Source of the DNA: Nitrospirota bacterium
GTDB lineage: Bacteria > Nitrospirota > UBA9217
Direction of reading: 5' to 3'
Length of the DNA: 64,000 bases
Assembly: GCA_963751455.1 (NCBI GenBank)
Contig: CAVVUN010000002.1
Span: forward strand, 384,001 to 448,000
The position numbers and the translations under genes are program-made. The notes beneath the pieces were generated by a model. It was not told the origin of the DNA and did not search any database. It worked only from the letters and a program-made list of their open reading frames with translations. Of the stretch, positions 49,711 to 61,285 are shown in pieces; within the stretch, counting starts at the first letter, position 1; the number at the start of each line of letters is the position of its first letter.

Positions 49711-49762
49711 GGCAAACATCGAGCGAGGGGCGCGGTTAGCGCCCCTCCCGCGCATGTTGGAT
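49711..49762 (-). other. attC site (short, 52 bp)
   Basis: ATCCAAC-ATGCGC-GGGAGGGGCGC-TAACC-GCGCCCCTCG-CTCGAT-GTTTGCC. Confidence 0.75.
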
Positions 49763-50174: not shown

Positions 50175-51018
50175 GGGGTCAAATCTTTCATGTTGACAGA
50201 TTTCCCTCTAATCTAGCCAATAGCGCTCGAACCTTTATGTCTTTATTCACTTTTTCATATAATCGCTTTCGCTCCTGGCTGACCGTGACATAGTCAACTG
50301 CAAATATCTGCCCGATCTGCGGACCTTTTAGTCCTCCTGCCCGGTACAGCAATTCCATTACGATTCGACGTAAGTCACCTTTTTCGATCTTGATGGCTTC
50401 GATATCCTTACCTGTTTCTTTTTTGACTTCTTTAAAAACCTCTTCTGTTGACCTATGACGATATATCTCACCTACTGCCGGCCGCTCCCGGTCATTGGCT
50501 GCCTCTATGTAATTCTCCTTCACCCATGCAATAAACCCCTCTCCCCCCAGAATGCTTTGCCCAATCATGCTTTCTTTAAGCTCTGACTCTTGGGTCATCT
50601 CTGCATAGATCCGCTTCTTATATTCTTTTCGACCCCGATACGTATCTCCACCGTATTCTCCTAGCACCATGGAGTAATCAACGTACCATTCCTTCTTTCT
50701 CGTACTTAAAAAGCCTGGAAGGCTGCTCCACCGATAACGAATAAGATATTTGATTTTCTCCGGTTCCGAAAGTTTTTTCATGGCTTTTATTTTAACCGGA
50801 TTCAAGTGAATGTAGCGGGACAGAACGGAAAGATATTCGTTTCTCTCAACAAGAACGCTCTTGTACCTGCCTTGGTACAGGTGTCCTACGCGGTCGTGGC
50901 GTCGATTGTAATAACCAGTATAGGTTATATTGAACTTGCGCATGAATTCGGAAAGGTTGGCTTTTGGTGTTTCGAGAAGCAGATGGAAATGGTTGGACAT
51001 AAAAACGTAACTGTAAGG
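50175..51018 (-). mobile_element. 5'-truncated Y1/HUH (RAYT-like) transposase with C-terminal HTH
   Basis: YVFMSNHFHLLL HUH, GHLYQGRYKS, RYIHLNPV, YRWSS; end GGGGTCAAATCTT. Confidence 0.85.
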
Positions 51019-51031
51019 CGCGGCTCCTTCC

Positions 51032-51264
51032 GGGGTCGGACCACGCTAAAGTCCTGGTTTTCAAATGATATCGTTCCAATAATAGGCATTTTCGAGGCTT
51101 AAAGCCGCCTTTTCAGGCCCGAAAAGCGGTTTGTAAGACGCAGCATCCTCTCGTAGCGCATAACTGCCATCTGTTCCGTACACATCACGGCCCTTGGCCT
51201 TGATTCCAAGCTTCTCTCTTGTAAAGTTTACGAATAACTCGCTGCCTACGGCAATACTCTCGGA
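51032..51264 (-). mobile_element. 3' fragment of the Y1 transposase element also seen at 46921-47283
   Basis: SESIAVGSELFV..LREDAASY..LSLENAYYWND; end GGGGTCGGACCA. Confidence 0.75.
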
Positions 51265-51572
51265 TGTGCTACTGGAAACAGTGGCGCAGAACAAGGAAGC
51301 GGGTCAGAGAGCTGCTGAAACTCGGCGTGAGCAAGGATAACGCGATATCGGTGGGAATGAGCAGGAAGGGGTACTGGCATCTTGCGAAGACCGAGGCCAT
51401 GAACGTCGGCCTGTCAAATGCATATCTCAAAAGACAAGGGCTTACATCAATCAGAACACTGTGGATCAAGATTTACTATCCGGCTACGGCCCGATAATTT
51501 TCCGCGAATCGCCCGGTGCGGACCCGCACGCCGGGTGGTGTGTGGGGAGGGGCGGCTAAAGACCGCCCCTTA
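51260..51572 (+). pseudogene. 3' remnant of a class C (attC-type) group II intron; last 6 nt displaced to 53407-53412
   Basis: 77-aa maturase tail 62/77 identical to the 59251-60516 protein; short class C DV and DVI. Confidence 0.9.
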
Positions 51573-53406
51573 GTGCGCCTGAAAGTGCGCAAAGTCAGAG
51601 GGGTGCAAGTCCCCTTCAGGTAGACGTTCACCTGCCTGTAACCGACCGTAACTGCGTCGTCGTGAGACGGGGTGGAGAGCAACGGAAGGTGAACCGTCAG
51701 TCCGTAGGATAACGAAATCGATTCGGCCGGTTGTAACGGCGAGCCTGCTGAGGAATGGCGAAGCCCGGACTCTTCGGAAGAAGAGAAGCCTGTCACGCTG
51801 ATGAGCGTGTTAAAGCGATGACAGGGAGCAACAGGTGGTTGGATACGGAACGATGGGAAGTCATTGCACATGAATCAGGGATATCTGTTCCGGCGAGTGA
51901 CCGTGAACAGAAGTCAGAACCTCCATACGAGCGATGAAGCGCTTGTAATGAGCGTGGAGCAAAGGGAGGCAGGAAGGTAGATGAGCAAAGACCATACAGA
52001 GGGAAAGAAACCGACTTCAGTGGAGAATACGCCTAAACCAGTCGGAGAAACAAAAGCCCAACAATGGGCATGGGTGGAACCCACGGTATGGACGGAGCGC
52101 ATGCTGACGGCCCTCGGCAACGGGGTGAAAGGAGGCAGATGGTATAGTTTGATGGATAAGGTACACTCCCCAGGCAATCTCCAAGCCGCGTGGGCGCGAG
52201 TGCGCGCCAACGGTGGAGCAGCAGGAGTGGACCGCCAAAGCATCTCGGCATTTCAAACCAACGCAGAGAAGCATCTGGACGAACTCGAAGAACGCTTAAA
52301 AGGGAACAGGTACCAAACCCAAGCAGTCAAGCGAGTATGGATACCCAAGCCCGGCAGCACCGAAAAGCGTCCGCTCGGCATTCCGGTCGTCAAAGACCGG
52401 ATCGTCCAGACAGCGCTCAGAAACGTCATCGAACCGATATACGAGAACATCTTCGCTGAACAGAGCTACGGCTTTCGACCGGGGCGCGGCTGCAAAGATG
52501 CGCTCCGGCGCGTAGACGAACTTTTGAAGACAGGCTCCACGTGGGTTGTGGACGCTGACATCAAGAGCTACTTTGACAGCATACCCCATGACAAACTCAT
52601 GCGGGAAGTCGAAGAACAGGTGGCGGATGGAAAGGTGCTGGAACTGATAGCCGGATACCTGAAACAGGGGATCATGGACGGACTCACCGAGTGGGAGCCG
52701 GACAAGGGAACTCCGCAGGGCGCGGTCATCAGTCCTCTCCTGGCCAACATATACCTGAATAAAATCGATCATGCGATGCGGGCCAAAGGTTACGAGATGG
52801 TCAGATACGCCGACGATTTCGTCATCCTTTGTCGCGGTGAAGCCGAAGCGCAGCAGGCGCTCGCCACAGTCAGGGACCTTATCGAAGAACGAGGTCTTAC
52901 GCTTCATCCGGAGAAAACCCGGATAGCCGATGCCAAAGAGCGAGGAGGTTTCGACTTTCTCGGATATCACTTCGAGCGCGGCATGCGGTGGCCGCGTAAG
53001 AAGAGTCTCAACAAGCTTAAAGACACTCTTCGCAAGAAGACGATGCGGAAATCGGGCGTGGATATGGCGACCATCATTAAGGACGTTAACAAAAGCCTAC
53101 GAGGTTGGTTTGAATACTTCAAGCAAAGTCACAGGACGACGTTTCCACGAATAGACAGTTGGCTGCGCATGAGATTGCGGAGCATTCTACGGAAGCGTCA
53201 GAAGCGAAGAGGAAGAGGCCGGGGCGCAGATCATCAACGATGGCCGAATGCCTACTTTAGCACTCAAGGACTGTTCACTCTTACAACAGCCCATGAGATA
53301 GCTCGTCAGTCCCGTTGAGGGGCACTGCCGACTGGAGAGCCGGATGCGGGAGATCCGCACGTCCGGTTCGGAGGGAGGGGAGGCCGCAAGCCTTCCCTAC
53401 CCCTAT
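51573..53406 (+). mobile_element. Group II intron (non-C class, AGC triad), inner member of a twintron
   Basis: 5' GTGCG; DV GAGAGCCGGATGCGGGAGATCCGCACGTCCGGTTCGG; 3' CCCTACCCCTAT. Confidence 0.9.
51981..53318 (+). CDS. ltrA: Group II intron reverse transcriptase/maturase, no endonuclease domain
   Basis: GAAGVD, RPLGIP, SYGFRPGR, GTPQG, YADD, FDFLG. Confidence 0.95.
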   Translation: MSKDHTEGKKPTSVENTPKPVGETKAQQWAWVEPTVWTERMLTALGNGVKGGRWYSLMDKVHSPGNLQAAWARVRANGGAAGVDRQSISAFQTNAEKHLDELEERLKGNRYQTQAVKRVWIPKPGSTEKRPLGIPVVKDRIVQTALRNVIEPIYENIFAEQSYGFRPGRGCKDALRRVDELLKTGSTWVVDADIKSYFDSIPHDKLMREVEEQVADGKVLELIAGYLKQGIMDGLTEWEPDKGTPQGAVISPLLANIYLNKIDHAMRAKGYEMVRYADDFVILCRGEAEAQQALATVRDLIEERGLTLHPEKTRIADAKERGGFDFLGYHFERGMRWPRKKSLNKLKDTLRKKTMRKSGVDMATIIKDVNKSLRGWFEYFKQSHRTTFPRIDSWLRMRLRSILRKRQKRRGRGRGADHQRWPNAYFSTQGLFTLTTAHEIARQSR

Positions 53407-53437
53407 CCCGATTGGAAGTACGGTATTCCCAATTTTA

Positions 53438-56400
53438 CTACTCTTTGTGAGATCCTGTAGGATCGCTCTTCTTCATGATGTCCTTCAGGAACCCCTCTGC
53501 TTCTGCGGACCTGCCGTTCTTCATCATGACCAGCGCCTTGATCGAGTTCCTTGCCATGTAATCGCGGATCATAAGGATCGGCACCATGGGCGGATGCTTC
53601 CCCATATCTCCTTCGGGCGTTGCATCGTACTTTCCGTTGATGATCTCCTCGCGGGTCCTGTCCAGCTGCTCGTACCACGCCCTCTTGTCAGCCGGCAGCG
53701 CCTTGAACCAGGCGCTTTTCGAACGCGGATAATTGCGATAGTGGTCCCTGATCGCCGTGAAGGTGACGATGGCGCGCTTCCTCTGCTCGGCTGAATACTT
53801 CGGCATTGAGAACTCTCCCATCTCGGCAAGGATCTCGTCGAGGATGAATTCCTGCAACTGCACCGCGTCATCGGTCTTCTTGTCGCCAAGGAACTTGACC
53901 GTCTTGCCGGTAGTTTCGAGCAAATACCCCCGATAGGCTATCATCGCCTGGCTGGCCGTCTCGTTCTGGAGCAGTGTTTGAGGGATGCCTTCCGGCGTCT
54001 TTTCCTCGTTCCCGATGAAGTTGAATTCCCGAGCGCCCGCCTTCTGTAGAATGTCAATTATCTCCGCATTATTGATGTAGCGTGCGCGGCCGAGCGGCGT
54101 TCTATTCTCGCCCTTGATCAGTCGGTTGAGATCGACACCCTTGGTCCCCGCCAACAGCCGGACCATCTCCGGCCTGTTCTGGTTGATATTATGGACCAGC
54201 GGTGTTTCGCCGTACTCGTCCTCCCGGTTAAGGTCTGGACGACGCGACAGGATCTTCTGCGCCAGATCGAGCCCGTATTTGCCCATCCCGGAGTTGTACC
54301 AGCCCATATGCACCAGTGTCTCGCCCTTGTAGTAGGGAACGTTGACGTCGATCTCCTCGCGGTCCAGAAGCATCATGGCGATCTCATACCCGTAGCGCAA
54401 TCGGGAGTGGCGAATGGCCCTATTCAGGTAGTCCCCCGCCGCTGTCCGCTTGTTCACGTCCAGATCGGACCGCGCAAGGAAGAGCTTGACGATTTCAGGC
54501 TGGTCTTGTTCGATCGCCAGGACCATGGGCGTTATCCCCTCCCCGTCCTCCTTGTTGATGTCGATGTCCTTACGCGCGGCCAGGAGCTTCACGAGCTCGA
54601 TATTGGCCGGGTCCGAGGACAGGCGTCCGGGCTTTGGCTCGAACGCGGCATGCAGCAGCGTCTTTCCGTCCTTTGTGACCGTATCCGTCCGCGCCTTCCG
54701 CTCCAGCAGCACCGCGACGCTCTTCTGATCGCCGAGAGCGACAGCGTGGTACAGGGCCGTCCTGCCGTGCTCGTCAACCGCATCCAGGTTCAGGCCCGGA
54801 GCGCCGAACAGCTCAGCCGCGATGTCTACCCGGTGGTTCTGAAGCGCGCGCATGAGCGGTGTCGCTCTCTCCTTGCCCGGCAGGTTCACGTCGATCGCGG
54901 GACCCGCCAATTTATGAGACCTCTGAAGATGATCGTAAAGCGCCTCTTCACCTATGGCCCAGAAGCGTGACAGCGCCTTCACAAAAAGATAATTGTTATC
55001 CTTGTGCAATATCTTTGGCTTGAAGTAGTTATCGTATTTAAGCTTATCCTGCCAGACAGCAGTGGGAAACACCTGATTCTCCCCGGAAAGATCGGGCGCC
55101 AGTTCATAATTCGATAATTTTTTATGCTCGATATATTTCCCGGAGAGAAGGTCGATCATGTCGCAGCCGTTGGTTTTCACAAAGCAGATCTTGTCGTCCA
55201 GAAACTCGACAAAGCGGTATCTGCCGTTCCTGTCGTAGTCCCCTGAATGCGTCTGCACATGCCGGTGGTAATTCCACAATACAGTACCTTTGGAATCGAA
55301 TGCAAGCAGATAGACTTCCTCGCCCTCTGATTCGTAAAAATTCTTGCCGAAAAAGACCATATTGTTGTAGGACAATACGCCTGTTGTCGAGTAATTGAAT
55401 TGCCTGGCTATCGGTATATTGAGCTTCTTTTCCAGATCCTCCATGGCTACGGTCTTGATCAGGCGGCCCGTATCGATCTGCAGGAAAGAGAGGACATTAT
55501 TTTCCCCAACCACAAGCGTGTCATCCGTCACCGTGTAGCCGTTATAATTGATAAACTGGTCCGTAGTGGTCTTTCCCGGTATTTTATAGGAAAGTATCTC
55601 TCTGCCTGTCCACTTGTCAATGGCGCTGAAAACATCCGGGGCGTCTTTCATACGTTTTAGAAAATAGAGGCGGTCCCGGCCAAAGATCGGCTCTCCCCGG
55701 TCAATTTCCCTGTTCCACAGGACCTCGGGATTCTTGACAGGGGCAAACGGACCTTTCTTCTTCGAGGATTTAATTTCGGTATTTTCCGGCTCTCGCCACG
55801 TAAACTGATCCTTCACCTGCGGCATGAACGGCAGATCGCTTTTCAGGAACAGGACAGATTGCGTGTGCTTTTCGTTGTAGCGGTTCTTCGCTACCATGTA
55901 GATCATGTCGGGAGATAACTGCACGATGTGATGAAGCTCCGATTCGACAGTCTCGTAGGGCTCCTCGATGCTTACGACAGGGGCTGCCGATCTGTCAAGG
56001 ATGACGATCCGGTCATTTGCCTTGCTTACCTGGGAAATGGTCGAATCCTTTATCTCGCCCGTGACCAGGGCGATGAGCACGTTTCCCCAGAGTGGCCTGA
56101 CATACTGGACATCTCCCTGGGCCACCATTTCCGAACCGAAGGACACGAAGAAGCCCGAACCGTTTCTTCCTCTGACCGAGGAAGTTCCTTCCATAACGCC
56201 TCAGCATCCCGTATAATTTCTCGTTATGCTGATTCCCATGTCAGGCAGGCTGACCGGTCCTTCTCCTTCATTCGGAAACTGGATCTGCTCGCCCAGTTGC
56301 TCGTGGTTGTGGTACTTGACGAATTCAACGCGCCCAAGGGCTTCAATATTTCCTTTTTCAACTGCGGTGAGGCTCGCCTCCGTGAATCCCGGATCAGGTT

Positions 56401-58484: not shown

Positions 58485-60594
58485 GTACGCCCGGCACGAA
58501 CGTGAACTTATGGGGTGCAAGTCCTCTGTACGAGAACCAGAAGTAGAGTAGCACAAGTACTAGCCCATGGCAAGGGCGGAAGGGTGAACAGGGCGGAAGG
58601 GTGACCGACCGTCTGGAGGAAGCCTAAGGCAATGGTTCGACAAGCTCACCACGCGAGCCAGAGCCTGTCCTGAGCGGAGTCGAAGGAAACAGAAACCGCA
58701 TACAAGGCTTAGCCCTCGGGCGAGTTGGCACCACATGACGAAGCCCATTGGTTCAGGGGGTAGGGTAAATGCGGCGCAATACAATTATCCTTGTCCTCCT
58801 GACCCTCGCCCTCAGGGAGAGGGACCGGGTGAGGGAGGGCCGCTTAACGGAAATTCTTATCCGGGGAGATCTGCACGCCGTGCGATAGGATCGTCATGAG
58901 AAGAATCCGGGACGGGTCAACCCGGCAAACAAGGCCCAGGCATATCCGTTTGCTGTTAACGGATATGAGTTCCCCTTTCAGGGAAAACACGAATACTACA
59001 GCATCTCACGACGAACCCCTGTAGCGCCTTCTCTGGAAACAGAGACGGTGAGCGCGTACCCTGCACTCGCGATTCCACTCGTAAGCGCTGGGCACAAGCA
59101 GAAGTCAGCAGATGGCATAGTAGTCCCGTTTTATAGGGACGAAGGCCGGAACGCGGAAAGGAGAAAGGGCATTCCATAAGCTTCGGGAGGTGATGAGTCC
59201 GACAAGGATGAGCCGTATCCGGGCGCGTTATGGAGAAATAGCCCACTCGAATGACCACAGTAGAAGAAGTTGTAAGCAGTGAGAACATGCAGCAGGCATG
59301 GCAGCGGGTCAAGGCGAACAAGGGAGCGCCCGGCATCGACAATATGTCGATAAAGGACTATCCCGAGTTTGCAAGGGCCAACTGGCCGAGGATCAAGGCC
59401 TCCTTGCTGGACGGGACGTATAATCCCACTCCGGTCAAGAGGGTCGAGATTCCAAAAGACAACGGAGGTGTCCGGCTTTTGGGCATCCCCACGGTTTCCG
59501 ATCGCGTAGTACAGCAAGCGATCACCCAAGTGCTCGTCCCCGTCTTCGATCCCCATTTTTCCGAATCGAGCTACGGGTACAGACCGGGTCGTTCGGCGCA
59601 TCAGGCCGTAAAGAAGGTGGTTGAGCTGATCAACAAAGGATACCGCTACGCAGTTGACATCGATCTTGCAAAATTCTTCGACAACGTCAATTGGGACGTC
59701 CTTATGAGCCGGGTAGCCCGGCGCGTCAGGGACAAAGGCATCCTCCAACTGATCGGCAGATACCTTCGGGCGGGAGTCGTCGTAAACGGCAGGCTTACCC
59801 GTACCACCAAAGGCGTTCCGCAGGGCGGTCCACTTTCGCCGCTCCTGTCGAACATCCTTCTGGACGATCTCGATAAGGAACTAGAGAAACGTGGGCATCA
59901 GTTCTGCCGGTACGCAGATGATCTAATCATTCTGGTAAAGTCAAAGCGGGCCGGAGAACGAGTGATGCAGAGCGTCACCAGTTTCCTTGAAAAGAACCTC
60001 AAGGTGCAGGTGAACAGGGACAAGAGCAAGGTGGGAAGCGCGGAGTCCAGTATATTCCTGAGCTTTACGTTCCATCTCAAGAGGCCCACCGTCTCCCGGA
60101 AGGCGTTTGTAAACTTCAAGAATGAACTCAAGCGTCTTACCGGCCGCAGTTGGGGTGTATCCATGAAGCATCGCTACGGAAAAATCCAGACCTACTTACA
60201 GGGCTGGATGAATTATTTCGGTATCGGCATGAGATACAATGATGCGGTCGAGCTGGATCATCGTCTCCGCCGTCGGATTCGGATGTGCTACTGGAAACAG
60301 TGGCGCCGGACGAGGAAACGGGTCGGAGAACTGATGAAACTCGGTGTTGGTGAGCGACCTGCGGTAACAGCGGGACTGAGCAGGAAGAGCTATTGGCATC
60401 TTGCAAAGACCGAAGCCATCAATGTCGGCCTGTCCAATGCCTATCTCAAAGAGCAAGGGCTTACATCAATCAGAACACTGTGGATCAAGATTCACCATCC
60501 GGCCACGGCCCGATGATTTCCGCGAACCGCCTGGTGCGGACCCGCATGCCAGGTGGTGTGGGGGCTGGGGGAGAAAATCCCCCGGCTACCCGAT
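58485..60594 (+). mobile_element. Class C attC-targeting group II intron
   Basis: 5' GTACGCCCGGCA; DV GAACCGCCTGGTGCGGACCCGCATGCCAGGTGGTGT; 3' CTACCCGAT; antisense to cassettes. Confidence 0.92.
59251..60516 (+). CDS. ltrA: Group IIC intron reverse transcriptase/maturase
   Basis: NKGAPGID, RLLGIPT, GVPQGGPLSPLL, YADD, WKQW. Confidence 0.96.
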   Translation: MTTVEEVVSSENMQQAWQRVKANKGAPGIDNMSIKDYPEFARANWPRIKASLLDGTYNPTPVKRVEIPKDNGGVRLLGIPTVSDRVVQQAITQVLVPVFDPHFSESSYGYRPGRSAHQAVKKVVELINKGYRYAVDIDLAKFFDNVNWDVLMSRVARRVRDKGILQLIGRYLRAGVVVNGRLTRTTKGVPQGGPLSPLLSNILLDDLDKELEKRGHQFCRYADDLIILVKSKRAGERVMQSVTSFLEKNLKVQVNRDKSKVGSAESSIFLSFTFHLKRPTVSRKAFVNFKNELKRLTGRSWGVSMKHRYGKIQTYLQGWMNYFGIGMRYNDAVELDHRLRRRIRMCYWKQWRRTRKRVGELMKLGVGERPAVTAGLSRKSYWHLAKTEAINVGLSNAYLKEQGLTSIRTLWIKIHHPATAR

Positions 60595-61228: not shown

Positions 61229-61285
61229 GACTAACACGCGCGTGAGGAGCGAGCTTTTCGCGACTCACTGACGCGCTCGTTGGAA
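61229..61285 (-). other. attC site
   Basis: TTCCAAC-GAGCGC-GTCAGTGAG..CTCAC-GCGCGT-GTTAGTC. Confidence 0.85.

Follow-up and report, generated by a model that had tools for sequence, protein, structure and literature searches.

We confirmed that the twintron in the window, by which we mean the whole 64,000-nt stretch of Nitrospirota DNA analysed here, is real: an intact group II intron splits the DVI of a 5′-truncated class C attC intron. The inner intron belongs to a large lineage outside class C whose sites lie just behind short hairpins, most often REP ends. The host DVI was probably entered because its hairpin resembles such an end. Judged by sequence, the lineage appears to lie outside the one class (IIC) that is usually credited with seeking hairpins.

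Structure of the nested introns

Re-reading of the sequence showed the coordinates and both junctions of the twintron in the original prediction to be correct (Table 1). The inner intron carries the group II hallmarks, namely a GUGYG start, an AY end, a DV catalytic triad and a bulged A in DVI (53399, by position). It opens with GTGCG at 51573 and closes with CCCCTAT at 53406; A51572 precedes it, and CCCGAT and then TGGAAG come after it. Its RT has a YADD motif at residue 276, is 34% identical to the RT of the sister class C intron, and matched only the Pfam families RVT_1 and GIIM, with no endonuclease domain detected. The RF00029 match, the open RT and a position outside class C agree with the earlier description of an inner intron that has an AGC-triad DV and an intact RT and is of a class other than its host.

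Table 1. Features of the nest and its surroundings, by position in the window
Feature	Position	Strand	Description
Transposase gene 3′ fragment	51016..51264	-	IS200/RAYT-like tyrosine transposase; adjoins truncated host; C-terminus NAYYWNDII-stop; related copies at several other genome sites
Host class C (IIC-attC, assigned by sequence) remnant	51260..51572	+	Last RT codons, DV and most of DVI
Host DVI upper stem-loop	51548..51570	+	8-bp perfect stem, 7-nt loop; fold z -3.55
IBS1 CCTTA of inner intron	51568..51572	+	Pairs 5/5 with EBS1 (one G-T wobble); last base is the host branch A
Inner group II intron	51573..53406	+	1,834 nt, intact, non-class-C; ends fit family 5′ profile and 3′ consensus
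delta (C51748) and EBS1 (UGAGG, 51749-51753)	51748..51753	+	Conserved 11-nt domain I hairpin loop; top covariation
delta′ (G51837) and EBS3 (G51838)	51837..51838	+	Watson-Crick pairing with partners across family
RT/maturase gene of inner intron	51981..53318	+	445 aa, open; TIGR04416 402 bits (cutoff 300)
DV (AGC triad) and DVI of inner intron	53335..53406	+	Rfam RF00029 56.4 bits; fold
Displaced last 6 bases of host intron, CCCGAT	53407..53412	+	Also the final 6 bases of the sister and of most related class C introns
attC R'' box remainder, TGGAAG on bottom strand	53413..53418	+	Insertion target of host intron
Intact sister class C intron	58485..60594	+	attC site in same integron array; junction TGGT/TAGA; reference for host

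The host remnant keeps an RT stop codon at 51495-51497 and a CGC-triad DV beginning at 51507; the sister DV is likewise CGC. Over 293 nt, 51260-51572 shares 84% identity with the sister's 3′ end, and over 285 nt it shares 90% with a further class C fragment, on contig C3; the RTs of host and sister are 72% identical over 90 aa. The sister RT groups with the class C reference with support of 99-100. Downstream, the TGGAAG remainder comes after the stop of a cassette gene (53438-56194, minus strand), R'' of another attC in the same array reads TTCCAAC, and two class C relatives (L191 and L204) have TGGAA directly downstream. The setting is an integron array of minus-strand cassette genes with an integron-integrase-like gene that runs off the window end, and a scan detected two attC-like folds in the window (49711-49762 and 61229-61285). 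With a class C RT and bottom-strand insertion at an attC R'', the host is assigned by sequence as a IIC-attC intron; its own 5′ exon is lost, and the attC assignment rests on the sister site, TGGAAG, the attC sites and the integrase gene. The three tiers originally proposed were therefore recovered as an attC remainder, a class C intron remnant and an inner intron of another class.

A search with the host 3′ end gave 30 loci including the window, 27 of them parseable and 26 of those outside the window. The uninterrupted end CCTTA/CCCGAT (a slash marks the junction) is present in 8 of the 26 parsed class C loci outside the window, and one of these 8 (L205) has the same CTAAAGA loop as the host. 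Since relatives have such uninterrupted ends, the break lies just 3′ of the host branch A, which was placed by position against the sister and the relatives. The break position first proposed is thus borne out, and interruption at this point of the DVI is unique to the window copy among the 30 host-like loci. The host keeps only ~320 nt and is predicted to be dead, unable to splice or move; since nearly all of its 5′ part is lost, the nest would serve no splicing role for it. Once the inner intron splices out, the host DVI is predicted to be restored exactly.

The host remnant is fused to the transposase fragment at 51260-51264. The TCGGA microhomology that had been suggested for this truncation is possible, but the single transposase homologue aligned there reads CCAAT. 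We also observed a second IS200/RAYT-like transposase gene (50188-51015, minus strand) that is cut at its 5′ end and abuts the end of the first fragment; the region around this join seems to have undergone more than one rearrangement. Between DV and DVI the host has two additional bases (51540-51543; TGTGTG vs TGTG in the sister and most relatives), possibly a sign of decay. The RNA domains of the sister hold three short palindromes (58630-58690, 58779-58843 and 59054-59106), which recur elsewhere in the genome as 6, 6 and 13 BLAST pieces, respectively, and are genomic repeats inserted into a ribozyme.

Support for the assembly is internal consistency rather than independent reads, because no public sequencing run spans the nest junctions (best share of words 0.09; no piece covers the whole stretch). 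No other copy of the inner intron was found in the source genome, in which the nearest element is one 66% paralogue on contig C9, and across 151 related genomes its best relative outside the source genome reaches 65%. The inner-intron RT was found at E <= 1e-110 in 4 of 401 phylum genomes. Viral contigs gave no relatives of either RT (inner or class C) that were kept and no junction match, and a plasmid search with the host fragment gave short DV/DVI matches only.

Target sites and guide pairing of the inner-intron family

The sites used by relatives of the inner intron were drawn from 157 loci, comprising 67 from genomes, the best 80 of 178 metagenome loci and 10 others (the window, the contig C9 paralogue, five phylum-genome loci and three plasmid loci). 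Removal of 37 loci without a callable 5′ end, 9 with <40 nt of flank, 1 duplicate and 3 others (two mis-called, one with a 39% RT) left 107 unique sites from 82 distinct introns. We scored a hairpin wherever a perfect stem of 5 bp or more placed the middle of its loop 12-14.5 nt upstream of the site. Such a hairpin is present at 96 of the 107 sites vs 36 of 1,805 control flank windows; counting every distinct intron once gives 72 of 82. Read on the other strand, the junction is GTAG at 57 of 103 family sites and GYRG at 61 of 103. GTAG is the tag of a REP superfamily in the available text of PMC3733652, and family sites lie mostly at the CTA/C end of GTAG-type REP repeats. Target hairpins are multi-copy in the genome of L025 (18 matches vs 0 control) and in three anammox genomes (42, 59 and 131 matches vs 5, 4 and 4), with no clear excess in two other genomes (2 and 6 matches vs 1 and 8). 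Not every site is a REP, as only 12 of the 68 sites with 1 kb of flank have a second copy of the target nearby, vs 3 of 68 in the control.

The guide was located by aligning domain I and testing every column against the exon by mutual information. Bases -1 to -5 of the exon covary with five consecutive domain I columns, with weighted Watson-Crick fractions of 0.97, 0.88, 0.93, 0.93 and 0.81. The resulting EBS1-IBS1 pairing is complete (5/5) at 86 of the 107 sites and at least 4/5 at 105; when EBS1 was permuted among sites, the mean number fully paired was 11.9 and the maximum 22. Position -6 is unpaired at 99 of the 107 sites. The EBS1 columns hold 37 different strings, and unusual strings match their own exons, related sites not being independent. 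Additionally, delta-delta′ is Watson-Crick at 107 of 107 family sites and EBS3-IBS3 at 98 of 103. Across the family alignment we observed no covariation of domain I with exon positions -6 to -20, and there is thus no EBS2 signal. UGAGCG (51802-51807) had originally been suggested as a possible EBS1, but that loop is without exon covariation; EBS1 lies instead in the loop given in Table 1.

Another intron's DV or DVI is a rare neighbour of these sites. Pattern and profile searches for a DV upstream, which recover the window's own host DV, found a DV/DVI of another intron at 1 of the 100 family sites with at least 80 nt of flank, namely the window. None of 29 related class C DVIs was interrupted at 3′ ends outside the window, and no intron start at the branch A after AGC-type DV ends was seen in family loci (0 of 144). 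The DVI is therefore not the target of the inner-intron family. The original prediction had inferred a preference of the inner intron for the conserved DVI of its fellow introns and had proposed tabulating the flanks of homologues; the tabulation speaks against it, since relatives use other sites. A window-type DVI-junction pattern, the junction half of which matches 57 of the 107 known family sites, gave 1 match in 301 genomes of another phylum, which is not an intron, and 0 matches in viral contigs. A short junction pattern gave 10 matches outside the window in 301 phylum genomes, all of which are chance by profile score.

Several members of the family illustrate the range of sites. The GTAG-type REP of the source genome itself has ~57 copies with CCCTA/C ends, which fit the commonest family EBS1, UAGGG. 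The contig C9 paralogue, a second lineage member in that genome (C9:73228-75132, minus strand), with an RT 53-56% identical and a frameshift near residue 154, sits behind a CGTC-type palindrome, and its EBS1 GAUUC matches GAATC/C. Two introns (L002:3058 and L044:3085) interrupt a hairpin just 5′ of an ORF starting MPNYRR, a start that we take to be typical of REP-associated tyrosine transposases. Sites outside REP also exist: a divergent sub-group on pBN3 and Cupriavidus plasmids (L148-L150, L152 and L153; RT 51%, start GTACG) sits behind one hairpin beside an IS91-family transposase and an integrase, and pBN3 carries two intron copies exactly head to tail. One complete Chthoniobacteraceae genome holds nine copies (L046-L054), and the 8 with a called 5′ end have EBS1 UCCCG and one repeated non-GTAG hairpin, CCGGGA/CTT. 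At another locus (L042:2940-2991) the intron's own target end and about its first 46 bases are copied just before it, and this intron appears to follow its own domain I hairpin.

Origin of the insertion in the host DVI

Family sites are non-random in having a hairpin, a 5-nt IBS1 and an IBS3 in common, and the host DVI satisfies all three. The insertion point lies 13.5 nt downstream of its loop centre, a spacing shared with family target sites, and IBS3 is C53407, the first displaced host base, which pairs with G51838. One anammox REP resembles the host DVI in having a GGGGCGG...CCGCCCC stem and a 7-nt loop. The same geometry is present in 22 of the 26 other parsed class C DVIs, so that such a DVI is a standing look-alike of a REP end. 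With both the family geometry and an EBS1 match in the host DVI, the insertion is most likely a decoy hit, and the nest is probably a dead, one-off arrangement. We infer that the branch A was hit because it is the last base of YYTA/C and not for its chemistry.

However, three observations count against a decoy hit. The nearest relative (L078, 86% identical) has EBS1 UGGGG and the site CCCTA/C, and the window EBS1 differs from it at exactly the position where the site differs, a concerted difference that looks like adaptation to CCTTA. The GTAG REP of the source genome (CCCTA/C) would mismatch the window EBS1 at -3. In addition, no repeated CCTTA or CCTCA hairpin family was found in the source genome. 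The compensatory EBS1 change, the lack of a REP in this genome that matches the window EBS1, and the frequency of CCTTA/CCCGAT DVIs among host relatives (8 of 26 parsed) would all favour a retargeted sub-lineage, in which a single EBS1 change moved the intron off REP ends and onto the CCTTA-type DVI found in class C attC introns. We consider such retargeting unlikely, as the window intron is a single copy, none of the 29 related DVIs is interrupted, and the junction-pattern searches of 301 genomes and of viral contigs gave no second case. Moreover, 58 other places in the genome pair with UGAGG, allowing one wobble, and carry a correctly spaced hairpin of 6 bp or more, and close relatives in four sequencing runs align from 51571-51572 onward, with a different sequence upstream. 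It is likewise unlikely that, with the class C attC DVI acting as an inherent REP-end mimic (hairpin centre 13.5 nt before YYTA/C at the branch A), this copy marks a host switch in which one compensatory EBS1 change made a REP-homing intron into a parasite of attC introns. If that were true, the parasite would insert at the branch nucleophile and block host splicing until it leaves, and the inner intron would ride attC-homing introns into integron arrays as a hyper-parasite.

The A/GUGCG junction could also stem from branch chemistry (2′-5′ lariat read-through or trans-branching of two intron RNAs) or from an assembly chimera, given that it links the branch A with intron G1, as a lariat does, and that no independent reads span it. 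This origin is very improbable, because what follows the 3′ junction is precisely the six bases that the host lacks and then the rest of the attC, and because EBS1-IBS1, EBS3-IBS3 and the hairpin geometry all fit ordinary reverse splicing. We give almost no credence to the proposal that the family as a whole homes to the branch A in the conserved DVI of other group II introns: the window junction itself and the CCCTA/C ends of the family's own DVI speak for it, and the site counts above (1/100 sites, 0/144 AGC-type DV ends) together with 0 self-DVI matches in five genomes holding family copies, by a pattern that itself misses the window's junction, speak against it. The family's own DVI ends in CCCTA/C in 52 of 83 distinct ends and has target-like geometry in 38 of 83, and no self-insertion into the family's own DVIs was seen across the loci L001-L159.

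Class placement and significance of the family

In RT trees, the family RTs form one clade (support 88 and 94) that includes the pBN3 intron and excludes class C, the class C reference pair being separate with support of 99-100. These were quick searches with few references, two for class C and one each for A, D, E, CL1, ML, g1, g2 and g3, and none for g6. RTs of A, D, E, CL1, ML, g1 and F (g2, g3) are 30-39% identical and none falls inside the family clade; the ML reference reaches 43% over a 203-aa piece. Class C introns are defined by a short DV with a CGC triad, as seen in the host and sister; the inner intron instead has an AGC triad and matches RF00029. Like IIC introns, it follows an upstream stem-loop (96/107 family sites) and gives no EBS2 signal. 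From sequence comparison, the inner intron appears to work like a IIC intron without being one. Class labels were taken from Table S3 of PMC8919778 and from the main text and Table S2 of PMC3552965, the parts of these papers used here, and the pBN3 intron is listed as Unclassified in the former. The RT phylogeny proposed with the original prediction therefore places the inner intron outside class C, with the Unclassified pBN3 intron of Miura et al.

The likeness to IIC introns extends to several features described in the available text on E. rectale (PMC10190682) and in that of PMC4424553, namely an upstream DNA stem-loop, a short EBS1-IBS1, EBS3-IBS3, and the lack of both EBS2 and an endonuclease domain. 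Unlike IIC introns, the inner intron has a full-length AGC-triad DV and an RT outside their clade at 34% identity, and its family has five contiguous covarying EBS1 pairs and a hairpin that abuts or overlaps IBS1 with no spacer. Sites also differ, as IIC introns use terminators or attC whereas the family uses mostly REP ends. In the passages available, Chung et al. (PMC10190682) term DNA stem-loop targeting exclusive to IIC, and Monachello et al. (PMC8643678) credit stem-loop recognition to IIC. Miura et al. 2022 (PMC8919778) report that g6, U1 and U2 introns frequently lie immediately behind predicted terminators (L- or I-shaped), which partly anticipates our hairpin-site result; the accessible part of that paper gives no EBS1 rule, hairpin geometry or REP link of the kind found here. 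Available portions of two other papers hold a speculation on hairpins preceding IIB introns in integrons (Sonbol and Siam) and the finding that EBS2 is dispensable for splicing of E and F introns (Nagy et al.).

As in the twintrons of Methanosarcina (PMC4424553) and Trichodesmium T.e.I7/I8 (PMC4649490), as far as the accessible text describes them, the nest is a clean intron within an intron whose inner member must leave first. The insertions described there lie in intron ORFs or domain I, whereas here it is in DVI right after the branch A. In addition, the host here is predicted to be dead, unlike those of known twintrons, and homing into introns is not the habit of the inner family. Across the literature covered, which takes in few subscription journals, we found no paper in which group II introns home to REPs or insert behind the branch A of a DVI.

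Insertion sequences that target REP were reportedly described by Tobes and Pareja in 2006. For such elements, and in the GTAG/CGTC REP families as presented in the available text of PMC3733652, multi-copy intergenic REP hairpins serve as harmless landing sites, much as they do for the present family. Unlike those insertion sequences, the element here is an RNA-guided retroelement, with an EBS1 that follows the REP tag and no transposase.

By comparison across sites, the target rule consists of a hairpin with its loop centred 12-14.5 nt upstream, a 5-nt IBS1/EBS1 pairing and one IBS3 base, without EBS2. By analogy with class C, as described in the accessible parts of PMC10190682 and PMC4424553, the hairpin would fold in single-stranded DNA, probably at a replication fork, and would be read by shape by the RNP. 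EBS1 and EBS3 would then pair with the folded target, the RNP would reverse-splice into the single-stranded DNA, and the inserted intron would be copied without an endonuclease from a replication primer.

The lineage behind the nest matters more than the nest itself. Of 7,998 protein clusters scored against the RT, 7,399 reach E <= 1e-150, a count by score and not by clade membership; the nearest RTs among the clusters stand at 89% (P0002 and P0003) and 85% (P0004). This large clade outside IIC combines a hairpin shape, which by analogy would be what is read, with a guide of five bases that can be reprogrammed and that tracks the REP tag of its host. The family offers a minimal-guide retroelement and a natural intermediate in which to examine the passage from structure-based targeting to EBS2 pairing. 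To this the window adds that the branch hairpin of another intron obeys the same target rule, so that avoidance or exploitation of intron DVIs by such introns, including their own DVIs, can be tested directly.
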